NCBI GenBank assembly: GCA_963791045.1
Contig: CAWBQK010000013.1
Span: 64,001 to 128,000 of the forward strand
Length of the DNA stretch: 64,000 bases
Reading direction: 5' to 3'
Source: Candidatus Latescibacterota bacterium
GTDB taxonomy: Bacteria; Krumholzibacteriota; Krumholzibacteriia; WVZY01
Below, piece by piece: positions 1 to 26,371 of this stretch. The stretch's first letter is position 1. Each line of letters starts with the position of its first letter. The notes below the pieces were generated by a model that did not search any database, was not told where the DNA came from, and saw only the letters and a program-made list of their open reading frames with translations. Position numbers and translations under genes: made by a program.

Positions 1-3000
1 TATTGGGCCTCGACGAGCGACTTGCCCCGCTTGATCCGGTTGAGCCCCGTCTTAACAGCGACATATTCGTCGTCGACCTGGCTTGAGAACGACCGGTACC
101 CCTCGATATCAAACATCGCGGCGAGATCCCAGGTGATCGGGAACGTTTGTTTCATTCCCATGATTGTTCCCATTCGCTTGTCGTTCGCCGTCCGGTTCAT
201 CGCGTACTTCGTATACAGCTTCGAATTCTGACCCGTCTGCGCCTCGATGCCGGTGAGCAGCTGGTGGGTCGCAGGCCGGTTGTGCGCCGACAAGTACTCG
301 TGCGTCGCCACGACCCGGTATCTCTGGAGGAAGCGGTACGACAAAGCCGAAGTCAAACGGTCGGGATACTCATCGACAATATCCGCGCCCTGGTTCCGCT
401 CCCAATGCGTCCGAAGTTCCGCGCTGCGGCCGGCGCGGACGCCGGCGTCAAGCATGGTGAGAAAACTGCTGCTCTCGATACTTTCCTTGTCCTGCGTCGC
501 CGCCCTGAGGCCCGCGCCAAACATCAGGGTCTTCCCTTCGTACTTTCCAAGCACGTCCACATTGCCAAGACGGTCGCCGCTATTGTCATTCCGGTGTTTG
601 AAACCGTGCGAGTCGATGGACAGGTCGTTGCTTATTCTCAAGTGCGAGTCAAACCCCGCCTTTTCGCTGTAAAGCTCGCGCGAAGCTCCGGCAAACGACG
701 GGTTGAGGAAATTGCCGTCGACCTTGCGGAGATAAACCGAGTGCTCACCCATGAGTTTTTTCGTGCCCGCCATCACGCGAAACGCGTTGCCTTCGCCGGC
801 GATGTCGTCCTCGCTTCGAGCAAACTCGCCCCCCAGATCGAGCCAGCCTATCGAGTATCCGCCATCGAAGCCGTAGAGCGAATAATCCGAAAGATGCCCG
901 TCCTTGGCGATCGCGGTCACGCCGAGCTTGAAACGGCCGCTCTGTGCCAGTGCGCCTCGGATCCCGTAGAGATAGTCTCCCTCTTCCGACGATTCCGCCT
1001 CGTAGATGGCGACGATCCTTACCGGGTTCAATTCGCGCGTGAATGCGGGAATCGGCTCTTTGAAAAGAATCGCGCCGTTGAAATAGTTGACGGTGAAGTC
1101 CCGATGTTCAGTGAGGGGCCTGATCTCTAGAATTCTCTCGGACTGGTAGCGGTCGCGCACCTGGAGCATGAGGTTTACAGAGTTTTCCACGACGGGCGAT
1201 TTCGACAGGAAGTAGAACCCGCTGGTGCCGTCACCCTGGATTTCATCCTGGACGGTAAAGAAATCCGTTTTGGTCACGAACGCTTCGACACCGGCGTTCC
1301 CAGAAACGATGGCGCCGTTGAGGCCGGTGGCTGATTTCTTGTAGGTGAGAAATTCTCCCTCGGTAAACGGCGACCGGAAGTCTCCGTATCGCAAGAAGGA
1401 CTGCCCCTTCTCGAGGGCGATGTAATTGCCGCCCTGCGCGGGCGCCTCGTAGTGAAGCTCGGACGCGTCGCCGTACGCCGTGTACTGACGCTCGGGGTTG
1501 AAAGTCTGAAGGAGCGGATCGTCGTAGCGCTTATCGGTGTCGATACGCGCGGTCAAATTGATTCCCGCGTACGACGTCCCCTGGATAAAGAAACGCGACT
1601 CGCCTTTGAATCGAACACCCTCGTAGTAATCTTCGAGACCCAACGGATCGCCGCTCCCCGATGAGCTGAAAGCGCCGAGACGCCCCTCGATGATTCCCGA
1701 CATAAACATCGACCGGTGTGCCGGAACAAAAGCGACAACACATGTCGCCCTGTAACCGTGCGACTCGACGACAATATTCCGGCGCCCCGTTGTCAGGCTC
1801 GGCCGGATGTGCACGAGGAACTGTCCGTTCTCGCTCGAAATCTGCAGGCCGCGCTGATCCGGATCTTCGTCGGAGTTAGTAACAAGCGAATCGCCTTCGA
1901 TCACGGTGGCTATGAGACCGTTTATCGTCGGGAGACCGAGTTCGTCGCGGAGTTCGACCAGAATCGTCTCGCGTGACTGCCCGTCCGCGGGAAGGATGAC
2001 ACGATCGGGCACTATCGCGATATCCACGGGTTTGCCCGCGAGCGCGACCGACACGCTGTCGACAATCGTTTCGGCTCCATTGACGGGGGTCGCTTCGAGT
2101 CGAGGCGTGTTCCAACCGTTCTTGATGCGCACGGCGTAATAAGTGATCTCTTCGAATCGTTCGTCGAGATGGATTTCTTTTTTACCGATCCGGTCCGCGG
2201 GAACGAGTTCGTCACCGCTGAACAATTCGTACTTGCTGCCCAGCGGGACCCGGGCCGTGACTTCGATCTGGTCGCGCTTAATCACAACCGATCGGTCGGG
2301 CGGGTCAAGGAGTCCGAGCGCCTTTACCTTGTCCTGGCCGCCGCGTTCGTCCGGCGGACTCTGTTCAGCATCGCCGGCAACTCCGTTCGCTCCGCCAACG
2401 GAATAACTCGCCGTGCTGTCCCCGGGGGCAAAACCGACACCGGCGGCGCGCAAACGCATGGCGAGATCTTTGTCCTCTTCCCACGAAACCAGCGTGTAAT
2501 ACTCCGTCTCTTTGCCGCCCCATCCGTGGGCGAATGGCTCGAGGACGACCGTGGAATCGAGCCACGATGACGAAGCGTCGGGAACGTCCGGCCACGCGGG
2601 CTCGGTAATCGACCGGTTTGCTTCACGCCACGGGACTTTGCGGCTCGTGCTTGTCTCCACGCTTCCCAAATCCGCCCGCGTACTCGAACCACCATACGAA
2701 CTCGATCATCCGCCCCCGTGTCCCCGACCGTCGAGTTGAATCCGACAACGGAACGAATCTCGCGCACCCGATGCGTGTCGGACGCCGCCGCGGTAAACGA
2801 CACCTTGCACTCGATTCCGCGCGATCGGGCAAATCCACCGACGACATATCGGCCATCGACTTCGGCGATCCTCCCCGCCGCACGTGACGCGCGTCTTTGC
2901 GTCATCGAACACATCCGGGATTTCGAGCGCGAGATCAATCTCGACCGGGATTATCGCGTCGGAGGAGATTCCCCAAATCACAAACACGTGGAACGAATCG

Positions 3001-5282
3001 GCGACGGTTGTCACGTTACTCATGTCGGCTTCGACACGGTCGATTTCCGCATGGTCCTCGACACCGGTTCCCGGCGGAACAAAACTGACCTCGACACGAC
3101 GGTTCTCTGCGCGGCCTTCGCGCGTCGTGTTCGTCGCCACCGGCGTAGTGTCGCCGTGGCCTCGTGCGACGATCCGCTCTTGGGGAATCCCTTTGGCGGA
3201 CAGATACCGCTTAACCGCGCCGGCACGCGCCTCGGAGAGTTCCTGGTTCGAAGCAAATTCCGCGTTGTGGATCGGAATGCTGTCGGTGTGACCTTCCAGA
3301 TAGACGATCCAACCAGGATTCTTCTCGAGAAATTCGACAATCGGGTTGAGATAGTGCAGCGTCCCGGTTTTCAGATACGATTTGCCGATTTCGAACAGCG
3401 AACTTGGAATTGACGGCATCCGGTAAAGGGCCTGTTGTTGTTTCCGGATGCTCACCATTTCCTGGCAGGATATCTGACGCGACACCCGCGGCCTTTCGCG
3501 GGCCCGTTCGGGCATCGGGAATGACACCACCGCGTGGCCGCTGGGGATCATGTGGACCAACCGTTCGGTGCCGAACACTGCGTTGGTTTTTGTGGATATG
3601 GCCTCGATGTCGACGATGTCGGGCGCGAGCGTGCTTTCATCGATCCGGATTACACGAAAACCGGAAAACACCCACGGGACCGAGAAGCGCCCCGTCGAGT
3701 CGGTCAACGCGTACTCCCCGCTCTCGAGAAATACGCCGACCCTCGGGAGTCCCCTCTCTCCGTGATCACGCTTGCCGTTTTTGTTTGCGTCGACAAACAC
3801 ATCGCCAAGGAGGAAACCCTCGTCACCAAACATATCGTTTGCAATCTTGAGCGCGTTGACCACGGGCCCCGCGTAAAGATTGCGCGCGAGCGCCGTGCCG
3901 ACAGCGTTTCCGGTGATCTTCGTCCAGCCGTTCTTGACGCGACTGTTTGCGACAAACTTGATCACCGCCTGCCGGCGTTCCCCGGGAGCGAGTGATCCAA
4001 CCTGCCATGCGAGGGTCTTTCCGTCGAGCTCAAAATCCGGACTCGAGAGAAACTCGAGTGTCGGCTGAACCGTTTCGTCCACAACGACATTGTCGGCGCG
4101 GACGCTGTCGCTCCGGTTGGCAACCGCGACAACCAGGGTGACGATGTCACCGAAGGCCGCCGTGTTTTCTTTGAAAGTTTGTTCGAGACTGAGAACCGCC
4201 GACGGGTTGAACGGTTCGGCAAGAACAATCCGGTCGATTGTTTCGTTCGTCCGCGTCGTGTCGAGGAGCGAACGCGCTCGCAGACGAATCGATAACGAGT
4301 CCTGCCCGACGTGATAGAACGACTCATCTTCGGTGGTGACGTGAACTTGAAGCGTCCGTCTTTCACCGCTTTCCAGCTGACCGAGAAGCACCGCGCCCGA
4401 ACTGGCAGGAACCGTTCGAAGCCCGTTGCCGGCGCTGTCCCGCACGGTTACCTGAACCCCGGGCGGCCAACCGGTCGAATCGGCGGGCTCGATCCGAATT
4501 ATGTCCGGATCGCGGCCATCGTTAAGAATTTCGTTTTCAAAAACAAGTGTCTGCGTCGACACTCCAACGCTGCGGCGCGTGACGTCATCGGGACTACCCT
4601 CTCCGCCCGGCAACGCCTTCGCGTTCTCGAGCGGTCCGACGTGAAGCGGTTGGACTGGATCCGCCTGTGTGAGAATGTGAACAACGCTCGATGCCCGGCG
4701 CTCGAGCGTGTCGACACCCGTGGCCGCCGAAATATCGACATAACTATCCCCACCACCCTGCCCCGAAGTGAGAACGTACATCGTTCCCAGGTCCGTCGAC
4801 TCTCCGGGCCCGAGGTTGAGGAAGGATCGGTCTTCCTCTCCGGGATCGAAAGCGGAATTCCCGTTCGAATCGTGATAGAAAACGACATCACTGATTCCAA
4901 TCGTCGACGCGGACAAGATCGCGTGATCGACCGAGATCGAATCGGCGACGTTCCCCAGGTTTCGCACCACGAAACCGCACTGAACGGTATCCGCCTCGAA
5001 ACCGAACAGCGAATACGCGGGACTCGCTACCGTGCCGGCCGGCGTAAGCGAAATCTGGAAGAAAGGACCCACTGGTGTGGTCGCCGGATTGGACCGAACG
5101 GCGTGTCGGAAGCCGTTCTGAGTGTACTCGGCGCTGGACTGGGAAATGATTTCATAACCAAGAGGCGGGACGGCGGCCTGCACGTTTTGCCAAACAAAAA
5201 ACACCCCTACGACGACCCAACACCATAACAGGCGCTTTAACAATGGGTTATAGGGATGAATTCTCACTTGATGATCTCTCAA
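1..5282 (-). CDS. Giant secreted outer-membrane protein: N-terminal Ig/DUF11 repeats, SdrD-B-like domain, OmpA-like peptidoglycan-binding domain, Ig domain and long beta-rich barrel-like C-terminus. 3' end lies beyond the window. Interrupted by an apparent compensating frameshift pair (~2870 and ~2710).
   Basis: 858-aa ORF 5282-2706 has a signal peptide (..QNVQA|AVPP), DUF11 (GDIVTLVVAVAN..LAWQVGSLAPGE), FVDANKNGKRDHGE and OmpA motifs (EGHTD, NQELSEARA, NRRVE). In the segments I translated, the same frame resumes after TGA 2706 and reaches base 1 (NPERQYTAYGDASELHYEAP, ERILEIRPLTEHRDFTVNYFNGAILFKEPIP). The ORF track lists no stop-bounded ORF in that frame. Segment ~2870-2710 reads protein-like in another frame. 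Start codon uncertain. Confidence 0.8.
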
Positions 5283-5308
5283 GGATACAATCCGCCATAT
5301 ACGGGGCT

Positions 5309-5340
5309 GGCGGATGAATGGCTGAAGCCACTCATCCGCC
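5309..5340 (-). other. 14-bp intergenic RNA hairpin (mRNA stabiliser or attenuator candidate, no U-tract)
   Basis: Minus strand GGCGGAUGAGUGGC-UUCA-GCCAUUCAUCCGCC. The single mismatch is a G-U pair only on the minus (coding) strand. Confidence 0.6.
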
Positions 5341-5376
5341 TGCCTTGCTCAAATATTGTCCGTCTTGTCGGACGAA

Positions 5377-8079
5377 CTACTCGGCAATGATCCGAACTAT
5401 AAAACTCACACCGGTTGCTGACGCTCCACCGGGTTCAAGAACTCCGGCGAGAACAAAACGCACATGCGTAACGTTCGCGTCGAAGTTGACCGGTGCACCG
5501 CCACCACCGCTGACCGGCGTGTACGTCCACGACGTACCGCCGTCATTCGAATACTGCGGCGTTACGCCGGTAATCGAAGCCGGTGGTGTGCCAGGGTCAA
5601 CGGAACCGACACGGAACTGCGTGAACGCCGGAACCGCGTCTATGACCGCAAGGGTCTGAAGCGAATCCGTTCCGAGGTTCTGATAGTCCGTGGTGTATGT
5701 AAGCTCCGAGCCCGGTGTTTGCGGGCCCGCGGGAGCCACTGCCTTGGTGATCTGGAGATCACCGGCTGTTATCAACGTGATGTCGATCGCGTCGTCGCTC
5801 ACGAGCGTGACGTTGCCTGTAGCGGTCAACGTGCCCGTCTCAACCGTTCCAACGGTCGCCGTACCGGGAACCATGACCTGAGCGATAACCGTAACGCTGG
5901 CGCCGGGGTTGAGCGTTACATCGGCCAGAGGGTTGTTGAGCGTATCGTAGAACAGATACGTCCATCCCTGCGACGAGACGTACGACAGCGCGAACGTATC
6001 GGCCACGTTACCGGTATTGGTTACCGTGTGCGTGTAGCGGATCGTCCCGCCGGGTGTCGTGCTCCCGTTCTGATCGGGAGAGAAATCAACCGCCGCAAAG
6101 TTGTTTATCGTAACTGTGTTGGCGATAGTGTCCAGAATGGTTCCGTTGGCAACCGAGGTCGCTGTAAACGACACGGGGTTGATACCCGGAGCCGCACCCG
6201 CAGGAACATCCACACGGGCGACGATATTTACCTCGGCTCCACCCGCGATCGGTCCCACCGATACCAGTGTCGTGGTTTCGCCGGGATCGAGCACACCGTT
6301 GCCGTTGGGATCGTCGTAGAACGTGACGTTCCATCCCGCGGGCACCGCATAGGTGAGCGTGTAGGAATCGCTTCCCCCACCCGTATTAACAACATCGAGC
6401 GGGAAATCAACCGACGTCGCCGGGTCGGCGGGCAGATCCAACGGATTGTTGTCCGTGCCCGGACCGGCAAGGTAGTTACCGATGTCCACGCTGACCGGCG
6501 TCACGTTGAGGACGCGATCAGTCGTAAGGTTGAACTCGGTTGGATCGATCGTCGACTGGGCACGGATAACCGCGTCAAACGGTCCGCCGGCAGCCTGGCT
6601 GCCCGGGATTACCAGTCGAACGATAATGTCGACACTGTCGCCCGGCGCAACGGGGCCCACATCGGGGAGTCCGTCAAAACCGGTATCGGCGAGCGGAGTC
6701 ACGCCATCTGACTGGAGCAAAAGAACGCCCCAGGTGGCGGGAAGTGTCGACGCCGGATCGGTGAGAATATTGATCTGATCGGCGGCATTGCCGTCGTTTC
6801 TTACGGTATTGACGAAGTCCACGGTCGTGCCCGCATCGGCGTTGGCGAGAGTCTGGAGATCGTCGTTGTACAGGGGAGGCGTACCGGCACCGGCGTCACC
6901 GGCAGGACCGATTACGATGTCCGCGAGACCGCCGATGGTCACCAGCGCGTTATTCGAAACGATCGTTGTCGGATCCGGTGTCACGGCGGTGTTGTCGATA
7001 TAGGTCACGGCCGCGGTGTTACCCAGTGAACCGGCGCCCATGCCGATCGGAACGGTCGCCTGATACACAAAGTTGTAACCCTGACCCGGAATGATCGCGC
7101 CGTTGGTCACATAACCGACGGCAAGGTCGCCCGGCCCTGCTACGAGGCCCCAGTTCCATGTTTCGGGATCTCCAGCGGTCGACTCGCCGGCGGGAAGATA
7201 AAGAACCGTTCCACCCGCTGGCGTACCAAACGGCACACCGGAAATTGCGAGAGGATTTCCCGTCGAAGGATCGGTCGGAATAATATCCCAGAGCAACACA
7301 CCGGTAAGACCAACGGAACCAACGGTTACGCCGTTCGCGTTGTTGTTACCCGTGTTTGAACCGGAAAGCGTGTAGGTTACCTGGTTGCCTTCGAATACGA
7401 TCGCGGGCGCGGCGGCGAGATTGGCCGTCATTACCGCGTCGTTCACAACGTCGGTCCTGTGATAATTGCGTGTGTCGATCTGTGCCGCGTCTCCAACAGA
7501 GACACCGGTCACACCGACGTAAGCAAGTTCACCCGAAACGGCGGCCGCGGGCACTGTGTAGGCGACGATAACACTGATTGTCTGCCCGGCGGTGAGAATC
7601 CCCGTATTGCCCGAAATGCCCCCGGCGCTCAGAACGGGTTCACCAAGATCCACCATGCCGTTCGAGTTGAGATCGTGATAAATCGTGACATCGACGTTGT
7701 TGAGCAACATTGTTGAATTCGCAACGTCAACATTGGGAGACAACGTAAAGTCATCGTCGTCATTACCCGTGTTGGTCAGATCGTATCTATAATATACGGT
7801 CATGCCGGGCAGTGCATTCTGAGCCATCGCCGGAGTCAGGGGAGGCGTTTCACCCGAATCATCGGGGAGAATCGACACACCAAACACCGGAAGAACGATG
7901 GTGATGACTTCATTTGATGTCGCGGAATAATTGTTCCCACCCATGTCCTGGTAGGTCGCAGATGACCGGTTCCGGATCTGCGTACCGGCAGGCGTTGCCT
8001 GCGCAAAGACAGTTGTTGCCGTGACCGCGACGATCAACAGCAACATCACGGGAAGGGTGATGTAGACTCGTCTACTCAT
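5377..8079 (-). CDS. Secreted 900-aa DUF11/Ig-like repeat protein, putative fibre (pilin-like) subunit
   Basis: Signal peptide (..TTVFA|QATP), RBS AAGGA. Repeated 'V.I.P..PG.T..Y..NTGN..D.F.L' Ig modules, Ca-loop motifs DLNSNGMVD and DPNGNGVLD, C-terminal DUF11 (LQITK..GSELTY..IDAVP..YSNDGG..VTHVRF). Thr/Gly/Val-rich. Confidence 0.85.
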   Translation of the reverse strand: MSRRVYITLPVMLLLIVAVTATTVFAQATPAGTQIRNRSSATYQDMGGNNYSATSNEVITIVLPVFGVSILPDDSGETPPLTPAMAQNALPGMTVYYRYDLTNTGNDDDDFTLSPNVDVANSTMLLNNVDVTIYHDLNSNGMVDLGEPVLSAGGISGNTGILTAGQTISVIVAYTVPAAAVSGELAYVGVTGVSVGDAAQIDTRNYHRTDVVNDAVMTANLAAAPAIVFEGNQVTYTLSGSNTGNNNANGVTVGSVGLTGVLLWDIIPTDPSTGNPLAISGVPFGTPAGGTVLYLPAGESTAGDPETWNWGLVAGPGDLAVGYVTNGAIIPGQGYNFVYQATVPIGMGAGSLGNTAAVTYIDNTAVTPDPTTIVSNNALVTIGGLADIVIGPAGDAGAGTPPLYNDDLQTLANADAGTTVDFVNTVRNDGNAADQINILTDPASTLPATWGVLLLQSDGVTPLADTGFDGLPDVGPVAPGDSVDIIVRLVIPGSQAAGGPFDAVIRAQSTIDPTEFNLTTDRVLNVTPVSVDIGNYLAGPGTDNNPLDLPADPATSVDFPLDVVNTGGGSDSYTLTYAVPAGWNVTFYDDPNGNGVLDPGETTTLVSVGPIAGGAEVNIVARVDVPAGAAPGINPVSFTATSVANGTILDTIANTVTINNFAAVDFSPDQNGSTTPGGTIRYTHTVTNTGNVADTFALSYVSSQGWTYLFYDTLNNPLADVTLNPGASVTVIAQVMVPGTATVGTVETGTLTATGNVTLVSDDAIDITLITAGDLQITKAVAPAGPQTPGSELTYTTDYQNLGTDSLQTLAVIDAVPAFTQFRVGSVDPGTPPASITGVTPQYSNDGGTSWTYTPVSGGGGAPVNFDANVTHVRFVLAGVLEPGGASATGVSFIVRIIAE

Positions 8080-8089
8080 AGTCCTTACC

Positions 8090-8581
8090 TCACTTGATTA
8101 CCGTTCTGTACGTTACAGTGATGCCTTGTTTTGGCTGGACGGGCTCCGAGAGAGCCCAACGGAGATGCGTCACCATGTCCGGTGTTGCCTCCACCAATTC
8201 TTCCTCGCCGTTCTCGTTCGTCTGTTTGACGAGAATCGGCCAGGCCTGGTACGTTTTTCCTCCATCGATGCTGTACTCCACGTCGCCCGTTTTGAGCTCG
8301 GTGGCTGACGGATGGACGAATTCGGTACCCAACGGGATTCCGTCCGTTATGAAAATATTCTGTATGGGCTGGTCGCCGGTGTTGGTGTAGGTCAACCGAT
8401 ATTCAATTGTATCGTTTGGCCTCGCGTTATCAGCGGGAAGAAAATCTTCCACTCCCTGGTCGGTAACCACCACCCGAAAAGCCTCGAGACTGCCCGCCAG
8501 ATCCCCCCCGGCGGCAAATGCCATCGATGCGGTCAATCCGAGAACAAGCAGAAACACCGCAAAGAAGCGCTTCTCTATCAT
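8090..8581 (-). CDS. Small secreted single-DUF11-domain protein (163 aa)
   Basis: GGAGG RBS before ATG 8581. Signal peptide MIEKRFFAVFLLVLGLTASMAFA. Motifs PNDTIEYRLTYTNTG..ITDGIP..EYSIDGGKTY..VTHLRW, homologous to the C-terminal domain of the 900-aa neighbour. Confidence 0.85.
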   Translation of the reverse strand: MIEKRFFAVFLLVLGLTASMAFAAGGDLAGSLEAFRVVVTDQGVEDFLPADNARPNDTIEYRLTYTNTGDQPIQNIFITDGIPLGTEFVHPSATELKTGDVEYSIDGGKTYQAWPILVKQTNENGEEELVEATPDMVTHLRWALSEPVQPKQGITVTYRTVIK

Positions 8582-8857: not shown

Positions 8858-8928
8858 TTTCTGGCGAAGACACCCGGAACAGGCCGAAAAGTGTTGAATA
8901 TTCTCCACCCAATGGCAATTATTTGGTC

Positions 8929-9993
8929 ATGGACTTACCATCGCGCGCATCAAGGTACAGGCTGGCAATAGTCCTGGTGGTGTCACTGGCGACCGTGGCC
9001 TTCCATTACGGCCTCATCGTCAAGCCATCGGCGGGAGATGACGGATTTTTTCATGCGATACACGGGCGTCTCTGTTATATCCCGATCATCCTCGGCGCGA
9101 TCTGGTTTGGGGTTCGCGGCGGCCTCGGAATCGCTCTTTTTATAACGGCGCTCACAATCCCATACGCCCGGTACGGCCCGCACGCCCAACACGGCGCGGC
9201 GATCGGCGAATACACCGAGATGATTTTCTATGTCGCGATCGGCCTCACGGCGGGGTTTCTTATCGAACTTCAAAGACGAGAACGTAAAAGGCGGGAGGAG
9301 ATGGCCGACGAACTCGCCCGCCAGGAACACCTCTCATCGCTCGGGCAAATGGCCGCCGGTCTCGCCCATGAAATCAAAAACCCGCTCGGTTCGATAAAAG
9401 GATCCGCCGAAGTCATTGGCGACGATTATCCCGAAGGCACGCGCAAACATGAAATCGTCGAAGTGCTTTCGAAGGAAACCGACAGGTTGAATCGCGTCGT
9501 GGAAGATTTCCTCAAATTCGCGCGGCCGCGGCCGATAAACAAAGAGATGCGCGGGTTGAACTTTCTGCTCGAGGAAGTCGTGTTGCAGATTGGAGTGGAT
9601 GCAAACGCCCGCAACATCACAATCAAAAAAGACATCGACGTCGCACTTCCTGTGGCGCGGGTCGATCCCGAGAAAATGCGCCAGGTGTTTTTGAATATGC
9701 TGCTCAACGCCGTGAACGCGATGCCCGACGGGGGCACTATCCGTGTCGAAACCAAAGTGGACATCCGTGACGGCAAGAACGTCTTTCGCATCACATTCAT
9801 GGACGAGGGCGTCGGAATACCGCCCGAGGATGTCAAAAAAATATTCGATCCGTTTTTCACGCGGACGGACGGCGGGACGGGTCTTGGACTCTCGATTTCA
9901 CACTCCATCGTCCAGGAACACGGCGGCCATATCGAGGTCGAACCCAACCACCCGCGGGGGACGTCGATTTCCGTTATCCTGCCCTTTAAATAA
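8929..9993 (+). CDS. Membrane-bound sensor histidine kinase (NtrB/ZraS/PilS-like)
   Basis: About 4 N-terminal TM helices, H-box LAHEIKNPL, N-box QVFLNMLLNA, G boxes DEGVGI, FDPFF, GTGLGL. Confidence 0.92.
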   Translation: MDLPSRASRYRLAIVLVVSLATVAFHYGLIVKPSAGDDGFFHAIHGRLCYIPIILGAIWFGVRGGLGIALFITALTIPYARYGPHAQHGAAIGEYTEMIFYVAIGLTAGFLIELQRRERKRREEMADELARQEHLSSLGQMAAGLAHEIKNPLGSIKGSAEVIGDDYPEGTRKHEIVEVLSKETDRLNRVVEDFLKFARPRPINKEMRGLNFLLEEVVLQIGVDANARNITIKKDIDVALPVARVDPEKMRQVFLNMLLNAVNAMPDGGTIRVETKVDIRDGKNVFRITFMDEGVGIPPEDVKKIFDPFFTRTDGGTGLGLSISHSIVQEHGGHIEVEPNHPRGTSISVILPFK

Positions 9994-10004
9994 GAAAGCT
10001 GAGA

Positions 10005-11354
10005 ATGCCCAGGCCAACCATACTCATAGTCGATGATGACGCGAGCATCCGCAAAGTCCTCGGATTTATCCTCGAGGAGGCGGGCTATGCGATTCGCACG
10101 GAATCGTCGGGCGCGGCGGCAATCGCGGCCATTGAGAGCAAACGGCCCGACCTCGTAATGACCGATATCAAGATGCCCGGGATGGACGGGATTACGCTTC
10201 TCGGCGAAATTAAGAAAATCGACGACGGCATCCCCGTCATCGTGCTCACCGCGTTTGGCTCGGTGGAGACGGCCGTCGACGCCATGAAACTCGGGGCAAT
10301 CGATTATCTCACGAAACCAATCAGCCGGGATGAGCTTACACTCACCGTCGAGAAAACGCTCCGGATACGACAACTCGAAAAAGAGAACGTGTCGTTAAAA
10401 GAATCTCTCGCCGACAAGTTCGATGTGGCGAACATCATCGGACACTCCCCCGCCATGCAAAGCGTATTTGAAATCGTCCGGAAGGTGGCGGCCACGGACG
10501 CGTCGGTCCTGATAACCGGCGAAAGTGGAACCGGGAAGGAACTCATTGCAAGGGCAATTCACTTCAACTCCACCCGCAAGGATGCGCGGCTTGTCACGGT
10601 AAACTGCGCGGCGATTCCCGAGGACCTTCTTGAAAGTGAGCTTTTTGGGCATGTAAAGGGCGCGTTCACCGGAGCCATCAGGAAGAAGGACGGCAGGTTT
10701 CACCTGGCGCACAACGGGACCATTTTTCTCGACGAGATCGGATCGCTTCCCCGACCCCTCCAGGCAAAACTCCTTCGAGCGCTTCAGGAACAAGAAATCC
10801 AAAGGGTCGGCGAAGAAGAACCCACAACGGTCGACGTTCGTGTGATTTCAGCCACCAACCGTCCCCTGCCCGAGCTGATTCGCGACGGGGAATTTCGCGA
10901 CGATCTTTTTTACCGATTGAATGTCGTACCGGTCACCGTGCCACCGCTGCGTCAGCGCCGATCGGACATACCGCTTCTCGTCGATCACTTTAAGGGGGAC
11001 GGAGGAAAGGTAACGTTCACCGCCTCGGCGCTCGCGGCGCTCGAGGAGTACGAATGGCCGGGAAACGTGCGCGAGCTGGAAAATTTTTGTGAACGCATCG
11101 TGTTGATGTCAGGCTCGGGCACGATCGACGCCGCACCAGTACGGGAGCAGATCGAATTGATGAAAGCGGAACAAGCCCATATCGGATCACCGCAACAGGC
11201 AACGCTTCCCGAGGTGGAACGCCGCGCCGTGGTCGAAGCGCTTATCGACTGCAACTGGAACCAGTCGAAAGCCGCCCGCCGCCTCGGCATCCCACGGCAC
11301 GTTCTTCTCTATCGCATGAAGAAGTTCAACATCCACCGCGACCATTCCGACTAA
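10005..11354 (+). CDS. Sigma54-dependent NtrC-family response regulator
   Basis: Receiver (ILIVDDD, DLVMTD), AAA+ GESGTGKE, GAFTGA, WPGNVRELEN, C-terminal Fis-type HTH (NQSKAARRLGI). Confidence 0.96.
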   Translation: MPRPTILIVDDDASIRKVLGFILEEAGYAIRTESSGAAAIAAIESKRPDLVMTDIKMPGMDGITLLGEIKKIDDGIPVIVLTAFGSVETAVDAMKLGAIDYLTKPISRDELTLTVEKTLRIRQLEKENVSLKESLADKFDVANIIGHSPAMQSVFEIVRKVAATDASVLITGESGTGKELIARAIHFNSTRKDARLVTVNCAAIPEDLLESELFGHVKGAFTGAIRKKDGRFHLAHNGTIFLDEIGSLPRPLQAKLLRALQEQEIQRVGEEEPTTVDVRVISATNRPLPELIRDGEFRDDLFYRLNVVPVTVPPLRQRRSDIPLLVDHFKGDGGKVTFTASALAALEEYEWPGNVRELENFCERIVLMSGSGTIDAAPVREQIELMKAEQAHIGSPQQATLPEVERRAVVEALIDCNWNQSKAARRLGIPRHVLLYRMKKFNIHRDHSD

Positions 11355-11425: not shown

Positions 11426-12505
11426 ATGAACAAAATCGAAATCCTCAACTGGAAAACCAAAGATCTGTCGACGGATGGACCCTTTGATTTCCGGCTCGAC
11501 CGCGGACCGGCCGGGCTGACGGAAACCGAAAATGCGGGCTCTACCGGCGAGCGTCTTCCCATCGGGGTTCCGGCGAGCCCGCCGGCGCTTCTTGAGACAG
11601 ACGCGGGTCACATTGTCATCCACGGACACAGGCAGATTGACGCGGCACTTTCCGAAGGCGCCGCGTCGATACCTTCAATCGTTTATCCGGCAGACACGCC
11701 CAGACAAACTGTCGTCACCCTGGCGCTCGAACAGTGCGCCATCCAGGGCGCCGGCCACCCGAGAGAAGAGAATAAACACAGCGGCGGCGCTCTTTCGGGC
11801 ATCGAAAAGATCCTGGCGATTTACAAAACGAGTTTGTACGCAGGCGGCGGCCTTGCGGCGGCAGGCGAGCCGCTAAAATTGGACACGCCGGTGTCCCCCC
11901 CCGACTGGATCGTTCCATTGTATGCAAATCTGCTCGGACGGCGGGTCTCCAAGCCATACCTCGCAAGGACCTGCACGGCTCTTGCATTCCCGGCGTCCGA
12001 ACTTCTCGCACTCGCGCGTTTCAATTTTACGATAGACCAGATCGCATCGATTCTCGTTCTCTCGCCGAAAGAGCGTGCCGCGGTCCTCGCCCTTCTCCGT
12101 GCCACCGCGTTTACGACGGCCGACCTCAGACAACTCGTCCGGCTCCTGATCCTGGCGCGCGGACGCGCAAAATTCGATCTCGAGCCGACGGCGGCGGCTG
12201 CGGCGAAGAACCAAAAGGGCGGTTCGGCGATCACCCGGGCAATTGAGATGGAGATTTATCCGGCGTTAACGGCCAGGAAACGGCGAATAGAGACCAGTCT
12301 CCGGGAGATGAGGCTGCCGAATCGGTTACGGATCAAGCCACCGGAAAACCTAGAAGGGGATTCGTTTTCGTGTTACTTTAGGTTTTCTCGGCTCGAGGAA
12401 CTTGCCGGTTATGTGGAATTACTCGGGCGGGCGGTGCAGGACGGCAGTGCGGGGAAGCTCCTCGATCTGTTGAATGACGGTGATGCGGACACGGAGGCAC
12501 AATGA
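11426..12505 (+). CDS. Protein with ParB/Srx-like N-terminal domain
   Basis: PPALL..HIVIHGHRQIDAALSEGAASIPSIV resembles a degenerate ParBc motif, followed by a helical region. 4-nt overlap with the next gene. Start could be 11378 or 11426. Confidence 0.55.
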   Translation: MNKIEILNWKTKDLSTDGPFDFRLDRGPAGLTETENAGSTGERLPIGVPASPPALLETDAGHIVIHGHRQIDAALSEGAASIPSIVYPADTPRQTVVTLALEQCAIQGAGHPREENKHSGGALSGIEKILAIYKTSLYAGGGLAAAGEPLKLDTPVSPPDWIVPLYANLLGRRVSKPYLARTCTALAFPASELLALARFNFTIDQIASILVLSPKERAAVLALLRATAFTTADLRQLVRLLILARGRAKFDLEPTAAAAAKNQKGGSAITRAIEMEIYPALTARKRRIETSLREMRLPNRLRIKPPENLEGDSFSCYFRFSRLEELAGYVELLGRAVQDGSAGKLLDLLNDGDADTEAQ

Positions 12506-15423
12506 GGCGTTTGTTCTTTCTACTGATTCTGGCGGCGGTCACTACCCCCTCACTGGCGGGAGCGCAGGAGTATTTCCAGCAAACCGTCGCCTACAAAATA
12601 AACGTTCGGCTCGACCCAAAAGAACACATGCTCACCGGGACCGAGGAGATCGTCTATACAAACAACTCTCCGGATACGCTCAAGGAGTTTTACCTCCATT
12701 TGTACCCGAACGCGTTCAAGTCAAAAGACACGGCGTTGATGACCGATGTACGCAAACGCTTCAACAGAACGATCTCCGACCTCCCCAAGAAATACAGAAG
12801 CTACCTGAACATCTATGACGTCCTGATCGACACAACACAAGTCTCTCCAATAATTGACGATACCATCGCCAAGTTCTTCCTGCCCCGTCCTCTGGCGCCG
12901 GGGGCAACCATGAAGATCTCGCTCCGATTCGAAGAAAAGGTTCGAAGGCACGCCGGTCGAGCCGGGTACCGCAAGGAGCACTATGACATCGCCCAGTGGT
13001 ACCCAAAAGTCGTCGTCTATGATGAGAAGCGATTCCATCCGGACAAGTTCCGGTTGGGAGAATTCTACGGCGAGTTCGCGGACTATGATGTCTCGATCGA
13101 TATTCCGATAAAGTACGTCATCGCCGCCACGGGAGTGCTCGAAGAGGGTGACGCAGGTTGGACGTACAACCCCGTGAAAGGCGACAGACGAAAGGGAGAG
13201 CGCGGGCAGGACAAAAAGTTCAAAACGGTCCGTTTCCGCGCCGAAAACGTCCACGATTTCGCGTGGAGCGCGAATCCGCGATTCAGCGTCCAGACACAAA
13301 CACTCAATGATGTCGAAATAATGAGCTTTTTCGACCGGGGCAACAAGTCGTGGAGAGACTCCACGCTGGCGCACGGAGTTCGCGCCGTCGAGTGGCTCTC
13401 AGAGAGGGTCGGGCTGTACCCGTATCCGCAGCTTTCCCTGGTCCAGGGACTGTTGCGCGGGGGGATGGAGTACCCGATGCTCGTCATGGACGGTCACGTG
13501 AGCGAATCGCTCGTCGTTCACGAAGTCGGCCACAACTGGTTTTACGGCGCTCTGGCGAATAACGAAAGAAACTCGGCATGGCTCGACGAAGGACTGACAA
13601 CATTCCAGACCGATTGGTACCTGACCGAACGTTACGGCAAATGGGGCAATAAGAAGAAGTGGAACCTGTACGAAAAAATCACGCCTCAATACACACTCGT
13701 CGAAAAACAGAGGCGACGGGTTCTTCCCCTCATGCGCAGAGGATATTCCGAGCGCCTATCCAAGCCGGCGGAGAATTACAAACACGATTACGCGGCGATG
13801 GTTTACGGCAAAGGCTCGTTGATGTTCAACGCGCTGCGTTATGTCGTGGGCGAAGAGGATTTCGAAGAAATACTCAAAACTTACTATGAACGCTGGAAAT
13901 TCAAACACGTCAACGAGGAGAGATTCCAGGCGGTGTGCGAAGAAGTCAGCGGCATGGACCTCAATCTGTTCTTCGAGCAGTGGATCCACACGATCAAGGT
14001 TTGTGATTACAATCTCTCCAAAATGAAAACCACGGTCAATGAAAGCGGCGACGGCTACGTAACGGAGATAACCATTTTCAGACTCGGCGAAGTTGTACTG
14101 CCGCTCAATCTCAAGATTACGTTCCGCGATGGAACCACACAAACAACGCGAATCGAAGGCCGGCTGCGGACTATCAAAAAAACTTACTCGTTTCCGTCGA
14201 AGCCAAAGAAAGCGGCGCTCAACCCGGAAAACGAGATCCTCGACATTAACATGGCGGACAACTTCCTGCCGCGGCGCTACTCGCTTCAGATCGACTGGCC
14301 AAACAACCGATACTACCCGGAGGATTCGTACCAAATCAGGCATCACCCGTATGTTTGGTACAACGATGTGGACGGCCCAAGAGTCGGTCTTCATTTCAAG
14401 GGAAGCAACGCCGAGTGGAGCCGCCGCTTCAAATTGGGATTGTACTACGGCGTGGACAGCGGCCGGCTTGATGTCGCCGCCAAGTGGATACGTCCCTCGT
14501 CCATTTTCGGCACGCACACATTCGGCATTTTGTCCGGTTACAAACTTGAAGGCCGCCAGGACATAAACGTTGAACTCGCGTATCGCCGTCGAAAAGAACT
14601 GTCGCGTCCGCCGACTCACAATTTCGCGATCGGCATGAACTACCACGAACTCCGGCGCTCGCAGTACATCTCCAACCCGGAACAGTACCAGGAAAACTCG
14701 GACGTCGCGCCGTACATAAATTACCAGGTCGACCCGCAGTTCGATCTCTTCTCGACCGACCTCGACTTCGGCCTGCGGTTCGGACGAGAGTGGTTCGGCG
14801 GCCGATCTAAGTACACCCGGTTCAACAGTTCGGTTGGCTTGAAATCACGCCCCGAGCTCTCTCGCTTCGACACGCGTTTTCGGATGTTTTTTGGTGTCGT
14901 GGATGCGGAATCCCCGTATCAGCAGAAGTTCTATCTTGCCGGCGGCGGCCCTCTTGCCGAGGAAAAGGTATTCTTCCTCCGAAGCCCCGGCGCCATCCCC
15001 AAGGATCTCAATTACCACGAGCCCGGACACGGCAACCTCAGAGGTTATTTCACGGGGAATTTTGGCGTGAATCGTCTGTTCTCGCTCAATCTTGAAATGG
15101 GCGGCAAGGTGCCCCTGATCTCGAGCAGCAAAAAGAAATTTCTCGGCGAGATTAAGGTATATGCTTTTGGAGATGCCGGGTGGGTTATGGATTCAACAAA
15201 TCCCATCGGGACGAGCGAACGGATTGGAGATCTCGTCAACGATGGGATCTTTGATGACACACTTGCCGATGCGGGGATCGGTTTTACTCTCGCGCGGGAT
15301 CTTCCCTTCTGGAAAATGCTGCTGAGACTCGACATCCCCTTCTGGGTGGGGCAGCCAAAGATAAACGGCGAAACCCAACAGACCCAACACCGCTACGTTT
15401 TCAGTCTCAAAACATCATTCTAA
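12502..15423 (+). CDS. Secreted M1-family zinc aminopeptidase with long C-terminal beta-barrel-like extension
   Basis: Signal peptide. GGMEYP and HEVGH-x18-E (..WLDEG), YGKG. C-terminal amphipathic strands ending YVFSLKTSF. Confidence 0.9.
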   Translation: MRRLFFLLILAAVTTPSLAGAQEYFQQTVAYKINVRLDPKEHMLTGTEEIVYTNNSPDTLKEFYLHLYPNAFKSKDTALMTDVRKRFNRTISDLPKKYRSYLNIYDVLIDTTQVSPIIDDTIAKFFLPRPLAPGATMKISLRFEEKVRRHAGRAGYRKEHYDIAQWYPKVVVYDEKRFHPDKFRLGEFYGEFADYDVSIDIPIKYVIAATGVLEEGDAGWTYNPVKGDRRKGERGQDKKFKTVRFRAENVHDFAWSANPRFSVQTQTLNDVEIMSFFDRGNKSWRDSTLAHGVRAVEWLSERVGLYPYPQLSLVQGLLRGGMEYPMLVMDGHVSESLVVHEVGHNWFYGALANNERNSAWLDEGLTTFQTDWYLTERYGKWGNKKKWNLYEKITPQYTLVEKQRRRVLPLMRRGYSERLSKPAENYKHDYAAMVYGKGSLMFNALRYVVGEEDFEEILKTYYERWKFKHVNEERFQAVCEEVSGMDLNLFFEQWIHTIKVCDYNLSKMKTTVNESGDGYVTEITIFRLGEVVLPLNLKITFRDGTTQTTRIEGRLRTIKKTYSFPSKPKKAALNPENEILDINMADNFLPRRYSLQIDWPNNRYYPEDSYQIRHHPYVWYNDVDGPRVGLHFKGSNAEWSRRFKLGLYYGVDSGRLDVAAKWIRPSSIFGTHTFGILSGYKLEGRQDINVELAYRRRKELSRPPTHNFAIGMNYHELRRSQYISNPEQYQENSDVAPYINYQVDPQFDLFSTDLDFGLRFGREWFGGRSKYTRFNSSVGLKSRPELSRFDTRFRMFFGVVDAESPYQQKFYLAGGGPLAEEKVFFLRSPGAIPKDLNYHEPGHGNLRGYFTGNFGVNRLFSLNLEMGGKVPLISSSKKKFLGEIKVYAFGDAGWVMDSTNPIGTSERIGDLVNDGIFDDTLADAGIGFTLARDLPFWKMLLRLDIPFWVGQPKINGETQQTQHRYVFSLKTSF

Positions 15424-24139: not shown

Positions 24140-24241
24140 TGAAACCACCTTCGTTGAACTTCTTACACCTTAGAATACGTAGCCATTCAATCTGAAGTTT
24201 CAAAAGAAACGATGGCTTATTTACCGACGGGAGAAGATCCG

Positions 24242-26371
24242 ATGCACGCGAATCCAGCAAAACACCTAAAATGCTTTATTGCAGTGGTTTGTCTGGCCGC
24301 CATGCTTATACCGGCGAGCCCCGGCGACACTCTGGCAAAAATCATCGACCTCGAGACCGAGGCCCCGAATTTCCGGCTGACCGGGGTCAACGGGGATGAT
24401 TTCGCCGGTCAAACCGTTCTTCTTGGTGACTTCAATGGAGATAACCGGGATGACATGATAATCGGGGCGAGGGGTGTGGATTTTGATGGGCGGAGTTCGT
24501 GCGGCGCTATCTATATTGTACTCTCGAGCGACACGCTGACCTCTCCCATTGATTTCGCTGCCGATCGCCCGGATCTCAAACGAATTTTCGGCCCCACGGC
24601 CAACGCACAGGCCGGATCGAATGTCGCTTGCGGCGATGTCAATAATGACGGTCTCTCTGACATTGTCTGCGGAATCCCGACGGCGAACCCGAACGGGAAA
24701 TTCTCGGCCGGCGAGGTATACATTATATATGGAAGCGACACCCCGGCCGACACGCTCGATCTCGGCGGACCTGCGGCGGGATTCACGGTGATCCAGGGCG
24801 AAAACGTTTTCGACAAGCTCGGGGAATCCGTCGCCGTCGGTGACATCAACGATGATAATTTTGGAGATATTCTCGCGGGAGCGCCTTTCGCCACCGCCGC
24901 GGGAAGGCAGTTCACCGGTGTTCTGTTCGTGATGCACGGGGCCGCGTCGCTCGCCCCGGTCATCGATCTGACCGGGTTGACGACGGGTGTCACACGAGTT
25001 TTTGGAACCCACGATAACGACACCTTTGGGACGAGTTGTTTCAGCGCGGACGCGACAAACGACGGCGTGGATGACATTCTCGCGGGAGCCCCGCAAGCCA
25101 CGGTTCTTGGGCGGTCATTCGCCGGCGCGGGATATCTTATCCCCGGATCGACCACGCTTCCCGACACGATCGATACGCTCGCCGATACCTCGACCGGTAT
25201 CGTACGATTCCTGGGCGCGGACGCCGACGTTCTTGCCGGTTCCGGGTTCGCCGTCGCGGATCTGGACGGCGATCTGAACAATGAACTGCTCGTATCGTCT
25301 CCCGCGTATCCGACAAGCGGCAGGATCGGGGCCGGGGCTGTCTACTCTTTTAACGGAGCAACCAGCCTGCCCGATACCGTCGATCTGGCCTCACCACCGG
25401 CCGGGACAGTCCGAATCGACGGACCCACGCGGGGACTGAAAATCGGCTTCCATCTGGCGACGGGCGACTTGAATTTCGACGGTATCGATGACCTCGTAAT
25501 CGGTTCACCCGAGGCCTCGCCCCCGGACATACCCAACCCAAGAAATCAGGCCGGGATAGTCTATATTGTCTTCGGGCGCGAAGTATTCCCCGCCGTGGTG
25601 GATATCGGCGTCGAACAGACAGGTATTACAACGATTTATGGAGCCGCCCCTCTGAACGCGACTGGGGTGTCGGTGTCGGTGGGGCGTATTGACGCCGACG
25701 GATTCGACGACCTTCTCATCGGGGCCAACACAACCGATCAGGATGCCGCCTTTTCGGCGGGCGAAGCGATCGTCCTCCTCGGAAATCCCGGAATAACGCC
25801 GACACAGGTCACATTCCACAATGCGTGGGTCGACGCGGGGAGCGTTTGGCTCGAATGGCATACAAGGGATGATATCGACCCCGATTCGCACATTGTGCTG
25901 CGCTCGAAGGGCGGCGCGGATGGCCAACTCGTGCGTCTTCCGCTCGAGGGCGCCCTGACGCGAACCGGGCCCGGGCAGTTCGTTTTCGAAGACAAAGAGG
26001 CAAGTTTGGCGGGTTCGTATTCGTATACGGTAGCGACGGCCGGGGCGGATCCACAAACCTTCTTTACCGCAACCGTCGACGTCCCAACCCCGGACGGGGC
26101 GTTTCTCCGCGCCAACGCTCCCAATCCTTTCCGACACGAGACATCATTCTTGTTCGAAATCCCAAGGGCCGGGCGCGTGGCGATTCGTATATACGACGTC
26201 AGCGGCGCTCTCATCGCCACACTTGGGCCCAGGAACTACGCGGCGGGCAGCGCGACGGCAACCTGGAATGGCCGGACTCGAAACGGAGGACTCGCCCCCA
26301 CGGGGATATATTTTGCCCGTATGGAGTACGAGGGAGGGGCCTTCCAGCGGAAAATATTGCTCCTTCGCTAA
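24242..26371 (+). CDS. Secreted FG-GAP (integrin-alpha-like) 7-repeat propeller protein with C-terminal FlgD-Ig/T9SS-like sorting domain
   Basis: Signal peptide. Seven GDxNxDGxxDxxxGA-type repeats, each followed by an AGxVYxxxG-like motif. C-terminus NAPNPF..IRIYDVSG..WNG..GIYF..KILLLR. Confidence 0.9.
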   Translation: MHANPAKHLKCFIAVVCLAAMLIPASPGDTLAKIIDLETEAPNFRLTGVNGDDFAGQTVLLGDFNGDNRDDMIIGARGVDFDGRSSCGAIYIVLSSDTLTSPIDFAADRPDLKRIFGPTANAQAGSNVACGDVNNDGLSDIVCGIPTANPNGKFSAGEVYIIYGSDTPADTLDLGGPAAGFTVIQGENVFDKLGESVAVGDINDDNFGDILAGAPFATAAGRQFTGVLFVMHGAASLAPVIDLTGLTTGVTRVFGTHDNDTFGTSCFSADATNDGVDDILAGAPQATVLGRSFAGAGYLIPGSTTLPDTIDTLADTSTGIVRFLGADADVLAGSGFAVADLDGDLNNELLVSSPAYPTSGRIGAGAVYSFNGATSLPDTVDLASPPAGTVRIDGPTRGLKIGFHLATGDLNFDGIDDLVIGSPEASPPDIPNPRNQAGIVYIVFGREVFPAVVDIGVEQTGITTIYGAAPLNATGVSVSVGRIDADGFDDLLIGANTTDQDAAFSAGEAIVLLGNPGITPTQVTFHNAWVDAGSVWLEWHTRDDIDPDSHIVLRSKGGADGQLVRLPLEGALTRTGPGQFVFEDKEASLAGSYSYTVATAGADPQTFFTATVDVPTPDGAFLRANAPNPFRHETSFLFEIPRAGRVAIRIYDVSGALIATLGPRNYAAGSATATWNGRTRNGGLAPTGIYFARMEYEGGAFQRKILLLR

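Follow-up and report, generated by a model that had tools for sequence, protein, structure and literature searches.

Chaperone-usher pili end in a donor-only terminator, and the type V pili of Bacteroidota derive from lipoprotein precursors that carry a C-terminal donor strand. Archaeal thread filaments reportedly combine donor strands with isopeptide bonds, in archaea, with other subunit families and no barrel. Sortase-assembled pili (SpaA, SpaD, RrgB, BcpA) are made of CnaA-type domains and have a covalent backbone, in which sortase forms the links on an LPXTG tail. For the chaperone-usher pili Fim and Pap, PMC13721041 and PMC11821415 describe a tip acceptor, a self-complementary shaft, a periplasmic helper and a large outer-membrane barrel. 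PMC11821415 gives archaeal tafi a tip-adapter-core-anchor logic by donor strands, with a cytoplasmic-membrane anchor, subunit families of their own and no barrel. BsaA of Clostridium perfringens polymerises by "donor-strand exchange and lock", where an N-terminal donor is joined by an autocatalytic intermolecular Lys-Asn isopeptide bond; according to PMC11580942 it is a TasA-family protein of monoderms with a Glu catalyst and a SipW operon, and without an outer-membrane barrel. Finally, the CLIPPER domain (DUF11, PF01345; PDB 9IFR) contains a bond Lys715-Asn806 with Asp748, which joins the first and penultimate strands, and according to PMC12617251 the domain stands whole and is repeated within one long adhesin.

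The operon studied here lies at the left end of the window, the 64,000-nucleotide stretch of DNA that was analysed. We put at about two in three the probability that its products assemble into a fibre on the cell surface, tip-(shaft)n-anchor, by means of a DUF11/CLIPPER domain split between subunits. The first-pass annotation had described three co-oriented genes with complementary halves of a DUF11 domain, for proteins of 163 aa, 900 aa and a giant that starts near 5282. The three minus-strand genes lie at those positions, Pfam matches DUF11 in all three products and OmpA in the giant, and the profile mapping given below agrees (173 of 177 hits). As a three-gene operon the description was incomplete, since a fourth, acceptor-only gene, the probable tip, lies beyond the window: the giant gene extends past the left edge, its barrel ends 654 bases further on, and the fourth gene comes next. 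PF01345 is matched above cut-off in all four products. We found no published description of such a split-DUF11 surface fibre in the literature.

Table 1. Positions of the operon's genes, domains and key residues in the window; the fourth gene is given by its place in the genome.
Feature	Position	Strand	Remarks
Small acceptor-only secreted protein, 163 aa	8090..8581	-	DUF11/CLIPPER fold minus last two strands, two extra hairpins
Shaft subunit, 900 aa	5377..8079	-	Signal peptide, N-terminal donor hairpin, complete Ig-like domains, C-terminal truncated DUF11 acceptor
Shaft signal peptide, 26 aa, without lipobox cysteine	8002..8079	-	Read by eye from the sequence
Shaft donor hairpin, mature residues 1-36, the last two strands of DUF11	7894..8001	-	
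Shaft Asn37 (mature 11), predicted isopeptide Asn	7969-7971	-	
Shaft C-terminal acceptor domain	5380..5766	-	
Shaft Lys779, predicted bond Lys	5743-5745	-	
Shaft Asp814, predicted catalytic Asp	5638-5640	-	
Giant anchor, 5' frame	2706..5282	-	Signal peptide, donor hairpin, Ig-like domains, complete DUF11, SdrD_B-like and OmpA-like domains
Anchor donor hairpin	5058..5171	-	Ser47 (5142-5144) at the site of the shaft's Asn
Anchor complete internal DUF11	3843..4199	-	Own last two strands kept; first strand without Lys
Anchor OmpA-like peptidoglycan-binding domain	3099..3398	-	PF00691, E 7e-19
Anchor out-of-frame stretch	2700..2875	-	Between two compensating frameshifts, each adjoining a G run
Giant anchor, 3' frame	1..2705	-	Ig-like periplasmic domains, then a predicted outer-membrane barrel of ~800 aa from ~1745
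Fourth gene, ~1330 aa	G000:C13:59331-63383 (wholly outside the window)	-	Secreted, without donor; C-terminal truncated DUF11 with Lys and Asp

The proposed fibre shares with Fim and Pap pili the tip acceptor, self-complementary shaft, periplasmic helper and large barrel, and the completion of an incomplete Ig fold by a neighbour's N-terminal extension is found here in silico, with a donor of two strands and not one. Unlike in those pili, the subunits are multi-domain and of CnaA type with a predicted covalent lock, the helper would be an acceptor that masks donors instead of a strand donor, and the terminator is fused to the barrel. PapC/PapD and sortase genes had been reported missing from the window, and the absence extends to the genome (81% complete), which has no match to the usher PF00577, to the PapD/FimC chaperone PF00345 (the small protein being a DUF11 protein) or to sortase PF04203. 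CnaA-type domains and a covalent backbone, predicted in this case, are shared with sortase pili, but here there is no LPXTG tail and the subunits end 1-5 residues past a beta strand. Two type V features are lacking as well: no cysteine follows the shaft signal peptide, and the donor is N-terminal. The donor and the predicted lock recall BsaA, but the operon proteins have no Pfam or NCBIfam match to TasA/camelysin at E up to 1. CLIPPER domains have the same CnaA-like fold and the same positions of the Lys-Asp-Asn triad; here the domain is cut between chains and the bond would be intermolecular.

The donor and acceptor halves of the 900-aa shaft, claimed in the first-pass annotation, are found by profile and by structural alignment alike: the first 36 mature residues correspond to the last two strands of DUF11/CLIPPER, and the last domain lacks those strands. 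A donor profile was searched against 1060 intact repeats from the best 150 listed tandem-DUF11 giants, and it maps to the last 45 residues of the repeat in 173 of 177 hits of at least 5 bits; shuffled repeats gave 5 such hits. Acceptors end 1-5 residues past the strand that precedes the missing pair in 51 of 55 shafts (donor+acceptor proteins from loci of several phyla) and in all 31 acceptor-only frames. The donor strands do not belong to the first Ig module of the shaft, because structural alignments of that module begin at mature residue 37-41. A complete internal domain covers 4HSS 182-327, and its best pilin matches are CnaA-type domains (Z 11.7-12.8). The whole shaft gave only generic multi-Ig matches in Foldseek, and sequence searches of solved structures with the small protein, shaft and barrel gave nothing useful.

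Complex prediction points the same way. ESMFold2 placed donor and acceptor together with an ipSAE of 0.87, whereas the best control had 0.02. Of 157 solved complexes 116 attain the mark of 0.87, as do 2 of 215 mismatched pairs; the runs share at least 98% of contacts, with partner pLDDT of at least 88. This result may stem from likeness to solved CnaA/CLIPPER folds. Of 64 loci spread over several phyla, 50 have the gene order small protein, shaft, donor-only anchor together with the N-donor/C-truncation pattern; these loci are not independent (12 are from Balneolaceae and many are Krumholzibacteriia-like). None of the three computational outcomes that the first-pass annotation had named as refuting its proposal was observed. 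Together, profiles, structural alignment, controlled complex prediction and synteny support complementation as first suggested, and on modelling and sequence grounds the N-terminal hairpin of one shaft very probably fills in the missing strands of the C-terminal domain in the subunit that follows it distally.

The Lys-Asp-Asn triad is divided between chains in the same way, with Lys and Asp in the acceptor (55/55 shafts) and Asn in the donor (51/55; 4 shaft-type donors lack it). Among 127 aligned shafts, mostly close kin, Lys is present in 126, Asp in 127 and Asn in 126, and mature Asn11 aligns with an Asn in 168 of 173 intact-repeat hits. The two complete internal DUF11-like domains lack Lys, and the acceptors lack the Asn strand, which stands at the N-terminus of their partners. 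The best-ranked 25 contacts of the predicted complex pair Lys753 (mature) with donor residues 29, 30 and 32, not 11. Mature Asn30 is also invariant among shafts; we judged it less likely as the bonding residue since intact repeats rarely keep it (17/173). Because the triad is split between acceptor and donor, the subunit links are probably covalent: by sequence and by analogy, we consider it likely that completion of the domain would bring Lys and Asp to the donor Asn and that an autocatalytic isopeptide bond would lock shaft to shaft and shaft to tip.

The product of the fourth gene is probably the tip adhesin: it has an acceptor domain but no donor, and lineages differ in its N-terminal part. 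With 5 of the 31 acceptor-only frames excluded, all 26 tips have Lys and Asp/Glu. The split triad thus suggests separate roles for the two acceptor-only proteins, the tip as covalent acceptor and the small protein as non-covalent acceptor, either chaperone or alternative cap.

That the 163-aa protein is a DUF11 domain minus its last two strands is confirmed by its AlphaFold2 model, which aligns to CnaA/CLIPPER templates and ends some 10 residues short of the isopeptide Asn in these: it covers 4HSS 182-289 (Asn299) and 2X9Z 187-307 (Asn318; Asn numbers as given in PMC12617251). In Foldseek 9IFR ranks second (Z 8.1, rmsd 2.5, 91 aligned); TTHA1873 is another top fold match, over only part of its chain. 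Template starts in 4HSS, 4HSQ, 2X9Z and 3RPK put Leu32 on the isopeptide Lys site, where none of 86 relatives has Lys. The hhalign register instead uses residue 36, which is Lys in 50/86, so some caps could be covalent. We prefer residue 32 on the modelled structure, and the protein of this genome (Leu32/Arg36) has no Lys in either register. Since it ends before the Asn strand and lacks Lys at the structurally matched site, the small protein is probably a reversible cap or chaperone of donor hairpins. It may mask these hairpins in the periplasm and hand them to the growing base, a mirror image of PapD/FimC, and the covalent bond would make the transfer one-way; we favour this role by a little.

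One alternative concerns this part only and overlaps with the explanation that we favour: in the same fibre, the small protein could be a structural end cap, a rival of the tip for the distal donor, that acts as blunt tip or length limiter and is not recycled. Its topology suits it to the donor that the tip also accepts, 24 of 86 relatives have Lys36 together with Asp80, and some genomes have 2-3 copies. However, its gene neighbours that of the shaft in almost all loci, whereas the tip genes differ in position and type, and the missing Lys noted above also speaks against an end cap. This role is rather unlikely, though the most probable of the alternatives.

A second alternative is a giant adhesin in pieces, in which tip, one or a few shafts and anchor are joined by the same lock in near-fixed ratio to make a short stalk instead of a long pilus. 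With its 900 aa and several domains a single shaft forms a rod already, the anchor donor is part of the pore protein and might terminate the chain immediately, and two different donor+acceptor subunits in several loci (L071-L073, L075) suggest an ordered short chain. Yet the shaft is self-complementary in complex prediction and unusually conserved end to end (61-77% identity, full-length relatives among 120 listed), and most anchors of this lineage cannot lock covalently: the donor has Ser47 in place of Asn here, and Asn is absent in 18 of 26. We regard the short stalk as improbable. Since Ser stands at the site of the shaft's Asn, the anchor link is predicted to be non-covalent, and an anchor mostly without Asn in this lineage would hold the base reversibly; growth by donor exchange and release of the fibre would be possible, which is speculative.

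The anchor itself had been described as a giant with N-terminal donor, OmpA domain and barrel-like region. Donor and OmpA-like domain are present and a barrel is predicted, but the gene is not one open frame here: it leaves frame at ~2870 and returns at ~2700-2730, with a stop at 2706-2708 between, and its relatives have a single frame of 1900-1970 aa. The two compensating frameshifts are probably assembly errors; only if they are real is the locus dead. The barrel has ~35 amphipathic segments by a crude count. Its profile has one significant second match in the genome, the true SprA on another contig (E 0.00026 over 80 positions), and the SprA family TIGR04189 is matched weakly by 2 of 32 barrel members (best E 0.0029, far under the family cut-off). 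None of the 32 matches PF00577, and one has a weak NCBIfam usher match (E 0.074). Beyond these, sequence comparison with known families and solved structures gave no match, and in the ESM Atlas barrel and small protein fall only in unnamed or generically named clusters. The type IX translocon SprA/Sov has ~2300 positions against the barrel's 800 aa, and the barrel is dedicated to one operon whose products lack the type IX C-terminal sorting tail (cap, shaft and anchor by Pfam and NCBIfam, tip by Pfam). A different protein in the window does carry such a tail.

The giant, it seems reasonable to propose, contributes the final donor and is held to peptidoglycan through its OmpA-like domain, and its barrel may serve as a pore for folded subunits, tip first; we lean towards this arrangement. 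Export through the operon's own barrel and a polymer of n subunits are both inferences. The OmpA-like domain sits between donor and barrel, so the donor would be periplasmic unless threaded through the pore. A third alternative is a periplasmic or envelope scaffold: the chain would extend from the periplasmic side of the barrel, inwards or laterally, and cross-link the envelope, the pore unused. Donor, Ig and OmpA-like domains precede the barrel in one chain and would be periplasmic by default, and in Marinimicrobia the donor+OmpA protein is encoded apart from the barrel gene. Against it stand the variable N-terminal domains of the tips, one of them a CBM96 carbohydrate-binding module, the very large barrel with a segment common to a protein translocon, and the typical use of CLIPPER domains in surface adhesin stalks (PMC12617251); we consider the scaffold quite improbable. 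It is least probable of all that no chain forms, with the shaft closed on itself as a ring (its N-terminal hairpin has pLDDT 86-91 in the monomer model, which may reflect self-docking) or the proteins ordinary type IX cargo of the genome's SprA, as proteins with only a donor or only an acceptor are conserved next to the shaft, no type IX tail was found on the four proteins and the acceptors end at their last strand, and an Alcanivorax genome that has no SprA match also carries the operon.

Taken as a whole, the fibre could represent an undescribed, widespread class of diderm pilus: a split-domain, self-crosslinking polymer of multi-domain subunits (natural Catcher/Tag chemistry) with an acceptor-type chaperone that masks donors, base growth by exchange against the anchor's non-reactive donor, and a dedicated barrel distantly related to SprA, amounting to a new secretion-assembly pathway with a covalent ratchet. 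We advance this only tentatively, at slightly under even odds. If true, the few pilus systems described for diderms would gain a further class, and clusters annotated across many phyla as "DUF11", "conserved repeat" or "hypothetical" would acquire a function. Two-membrane bacteria would then have a covalent pilus that needs no sortase, the barrels would form a new family of large exporters, and protein engineering could draw on tag/catcher pairs from nature.

No sigma-54 consensus was seen upstream of the operon despite a divergent sigma-54 regulator pair beside it, and sigma-70 and terminator scans were near chance. None of the sequencing runs searched for the locus's words contained half of them, and matching contigs were short and shallow. 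In one RNA run all six pieces among the matches listed fall on the shaft gene; such contigs cannot rank genes and may be DNA.

A search of 1.84 billion representatives with the small-protein alignment was dominated by tandem-DUF11 giants, and its counts are thus uninformative on family size. Four Actinomycetota loci (L041, L042, L046 and L047) and locus L043 were rejected as weak DUF11 matches without the operon. The small-protein profile matches most genomes of four families in the window's own phylum; in the Alcanivorax phylum, 401 genomes were sampled and 30 of them have the gene at E up to 1e-12. Isolates of Alcanivorax and Balneola carry the operon, and the cluster is also found on pTT27 of Thermus thermophilus HB8.

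The operon belongs to a real and conserved system, and in our best reading, which we hold with a probability of roughly two in three, it encodes a self-locking surface fibre built on a split CLIPPER domain and provided with its own barrel. The first-pass annotation described three co-oriented genes; these were found on the minus strand, and a fourth, beyond the window, has to be added. DUF11 scores above the Pfam cut-off in all four proteins, and the giant additionally carries OmpA and SdrD_B-like domains. The window corresponds to G000:C13:64001-128000. The genome (3.66 Mb, 21 contigs, 81% complete) is, judging from its gene content, that of a two-membrane organism, since it encodes an OmpA-like domain, barrel proteins and an SprA above the family cut-off. 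The closest named relatives of the window's proteins carry the label Candidatus Latescibacterota or Krumholzibacteriia.

Locations of the operon genes (named by proposed role), their neighbours and related features (G000, the genome studied; C, its contigs, with the operon on C13; L079, a locus with a related operon)
Feature	Location	Strand	Remarks
Cap (small protein), 163 aa	window 8090-8581	minus	
Shaft, 900 aa	window 5377-8079	minus	
Anchor (giant)	window, starts near 5282, ends 654 bases past window edge	minus	contig read past window
Tip (fourth gene), ~1330 aa	C13:59331-63383		co-oriented with other three, beyond window; contig read past window
Histidine kinase and sigma-54 response regulator	window 8923-11354	plus	divergent from operon
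973-aa secreted protein	window 12502-15423	plus	weak M1 aminopeptidase match in first half
Protein with type IX tail	window 24212-26371		
SprA	G000:C15:124585-129957		above family cut-off
Two partial SprA-like frames	C11:259551-260009, C7:207710-209044		
L079	Thermus thermophilus HB8 pTT27, 173362-187718		cap, full-triad shaft, donor-only gene, ~1800-aa gene with weak barrel match, further DUF11 gene

The giant is a single frame of 1900-1970 aa in relatives. With intact relatives as tblastn queries, the window's copy keeps one frame as far as ~2870, follows a second from 2857 to ~2714-2732 and returns to the first beyond that stretch, and G runs adjoin both switches. In our reading both are errors of assembly, the upstream one putatively so. 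A short contig from a public run, near-identical over 2690-2839 and with a depth of 3.2, has one gap relative to the window, at an unstated position. Another gene, at L001:942-2301 (G000:C13:54942-56301), whose end is HNH-like, also appears split over two frames, as indel errors in the assembly would lead one to expect.

The complementary DUF11 halves proposed earlier were borne out in silico by profile, structure alignment and docking. Modelled with AlphaFold2 (mean pLDDT 88; 93-97 past the signal peptide), the small protein matched CLIPPER 9IFR as well as CnaA domains from Gram-positive pilins, with middling Z scores of 7-8 that unrelated sandwiches equal, such that only the aligned range was used. 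The alignment stops early, at 4HSS 182-289 and 2X9Z 187-307; the isopeptide Asn residues are 299 and 318, respectively, according to PMC12617251. A complete internal domain of the shaft spans 4HSS 182-327. The small protein is homologous end to end to the shaft's last domain (hhalign 99.4%), which in the shaft model (pLDDT 91) terminates after the strand preceding the missing pair. The same model begins with a hairpin of two strands (mature residues 8-36), followed by a run of Ig-like domains. These N-terminal strands lie outside the first Ig module, as had been supposed, since structural alignments of that module begin at 37-41. Among the cap's top fold matches were also PDB 7WRK/7WWO, Thermus TTHA1873, a protein of unassigned function with a dimer form.

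A profile of the donor hairpin gave 177 matches of at least 5 bits among 1060 intact repeats, cut from 150 tandem-DUF11 giants returned by a search, and 173 of these fell inside the last 45 residues, against 5 matches in all when the repeats were shuffled. In the suggested subunit-subunit prediction, the ESMFold2 docking of mature residues 1-39 into residues 744-874 scored 0.87, against 0.02 for the best control; at least 98% of contacts were shared between runs, and partner pLDDT was at least 88. That score was reached by 116/157 solved complexes and 2/215 mismatched pairs, counts that are only approximate with our own alignment supplied. Solved structures exist for the fold that the two pieces recreate, so this outcome may stem from resemblance to them and is no demonstration of binding.

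The CLIPPER bond joins Lys715 on the first strand to Asn806 on the penultimate one and is catalysed by Asp748 (PMC12617251). The shaft splits this triad, Lys779 and Asp814 lying in the acceptor and Asn37 in the donor's first strand (mature numbering, Lys753 and Asn11). In an alignment of 127 shafts, of which 114 are closely related to our lineage, Lys is kept in 126, Asp in 127 and Asn in 126; the 55 donor-plus-acceptor proteins of loci L001-L075 (7 duplicates removed) keep Lys in 55, Asp in 55 and Asn in 51. Donor Asn11 aligns with Asn in 168/173 intact repeats, and the second invariant donor Asn, mature residue 30, in only 17/173. The predicted complex places donor residue 11 in the interface, but in its 25 best-ranked pairs the donor residues next to Lys753 are 29, 30 and 32, as expected of backbone neighbours. 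From this conservation, together with the chemistry of CLIPPER, we predict a Lys-Asn isopeptide bond between subunits.

Thirty-one frames were acceptor-only; five were set aside (four shafts with the donor lost to a frameshift or position cut-off, one unrelated). The 26 remaining tips all have Lys, and the catalytic position is Asp in 18 and Glu in 8. Their N-terminal parts vary, being mostly ~1300 aa in our lineage and ~590 aa in Marinimicrobia, and modules are exchanged there: CBM96 at L020:16826-18097 and, by annotation, a beta-helix at L081:20593-24354 (Deinococcus ficus).

Six of the 59 donor-only frames were cut or split shafts, leaving 53 anchors, with Asn (35), Ser (16) or Gly (2) at the bonding position. 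All 18 Asn-less anchors fall within 26 loci built like our own; Asn is present in 27/27 anchors of Alcanivorax, Marinimicrobia, Balneolaceae and two-shaft loci. The OmpA-like domain precedes the barrel in our operon and follows it in Balneola, and in Marinimicrobia it is carried by a donor gene apart from the barrel; none was detected in Alcanivorax locus L022. In a second architecture (L071, L072, L073, L075; L099, L103, L105) two short subunits of 330-390 aa flank the cap, and Ser or Thr replaces the donor Asn of the first subunit in L072, L073 and L075.

Template starts put the bond Lys at cap Leu32, provided the first strand is ungapped, and Lys occurs there in 0/86 distinct caps (91 aligned, less four partial, duplicate or misclassed and one identical). 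The hhalign register instead points to residue 36, which is Lys in 50/86 and Arg in our cap; Lys36 and Asp80 occur together in 24/86. Judged from its residues, our cap cannot bond whichever register holds, because these are Leu32 and Arg36, not Lys. Genomes G418, G275, G381, G484 and G554 each have two or three copies of the cap gene, and in one of these genomes two copies lie ~1 kb apart.

The suggested synteny survey recovered cap, shaft and donor-only gene in that order at 50 of the 64 loci with at least one role (68 non-duplicate loci in all); the others were cut by contig ends (9), had a split or missed shaft (4) or were unrelated (1). Named carriers are Latescibacterota/Krumholzibacteriia, Alcanivorax, Neomarinimicrobiota and Balneolaceae. 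The cap profile matched 119/201 genomes of our phylum at E <=0.001, weak DUF11 matches included, and 30/401 of the Alcanivorax phylum at 1e-12. Under labels such as 'hypothetical' or 'DUF11', the cluster is also present on annotated plasmids of Thermus thermophilus HB8, Pacificitalea and Deinococcus ficus. The HB8 locus is a tractable model, on which no open-access paper was found under guessed TTHB tags; our own locus adds the lineage's non-reactive anchor donor, register evidence for a Lys-less cap and the barrel-SprA link.

The giant's final 800 aa can be aligned across 32 loci, with 35 amphipathic segments by crude count, some probably in a soluble insert. Sequence searches of solved structures gave no match, and searches of families with the 32 members no consistent one; TIGR04189 was matched weakly by 2/32, and the nearest Atlas clusters are unnamed or 'outer membrane protein'. 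Against 20052 frames of our genome, the barrel profile's sole other significant match was SprA (80 positions, E 0.00026). SprA, which has 36 strands, exports folded proteins. Together with the two partial SprA-like frames and the type IX-tailed window protein, it indicates that our lineage has type IX secretion. No SprA match was found in the Alcanivorax genome carrying the operon.

By analogy with chaperone-usher pili, as PMC13721041 presents them, subunits would be exported via Sec, the cap would mask donors, passage through the barrel would proceed tip first with growth at the base, and the chain would end on the anchor's donor, the OmpA-like domain holding the anchor to the wall. Shaft-shaft and shaft-tip links would be covalent, as CLIPPER chemistry suggests. 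A Ser donor could hold the base and then yield to each incoming shaft, an escape from premature termination. The weak points are chain length and anchor topology, as a donor-bearing rod must enter its own pore.

By the tests run, the operon falls into none of the described pilus families, and searches of the 81% complete genome for an usher, a PapD chaperone or a sortase gave no match. The archaeal thread, reportedly a donor-strand fibre with an isopeptide lock, is not the same system. Nor are BsaA of monoderms, which combines the same two features (PMC11580942), tafi, with its tip-core-anchor logic (PMC11821415), CryoSeek TLP-1, a fibre of unknown source with a single-strand donor (PMC11494351), or the Litorilinea hook, with DUF11 repeats in one long chain (PMC13319060). 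Among the papers listed by searches of open-access PubMed Central and bioRxiv, none described a split DUF11 fibre.

No sigma-54 consensus was found upstream of the operon. The C-terminal half of the 973-aa secreted protein resembles a membrane barrel, and its last residue is Phe.
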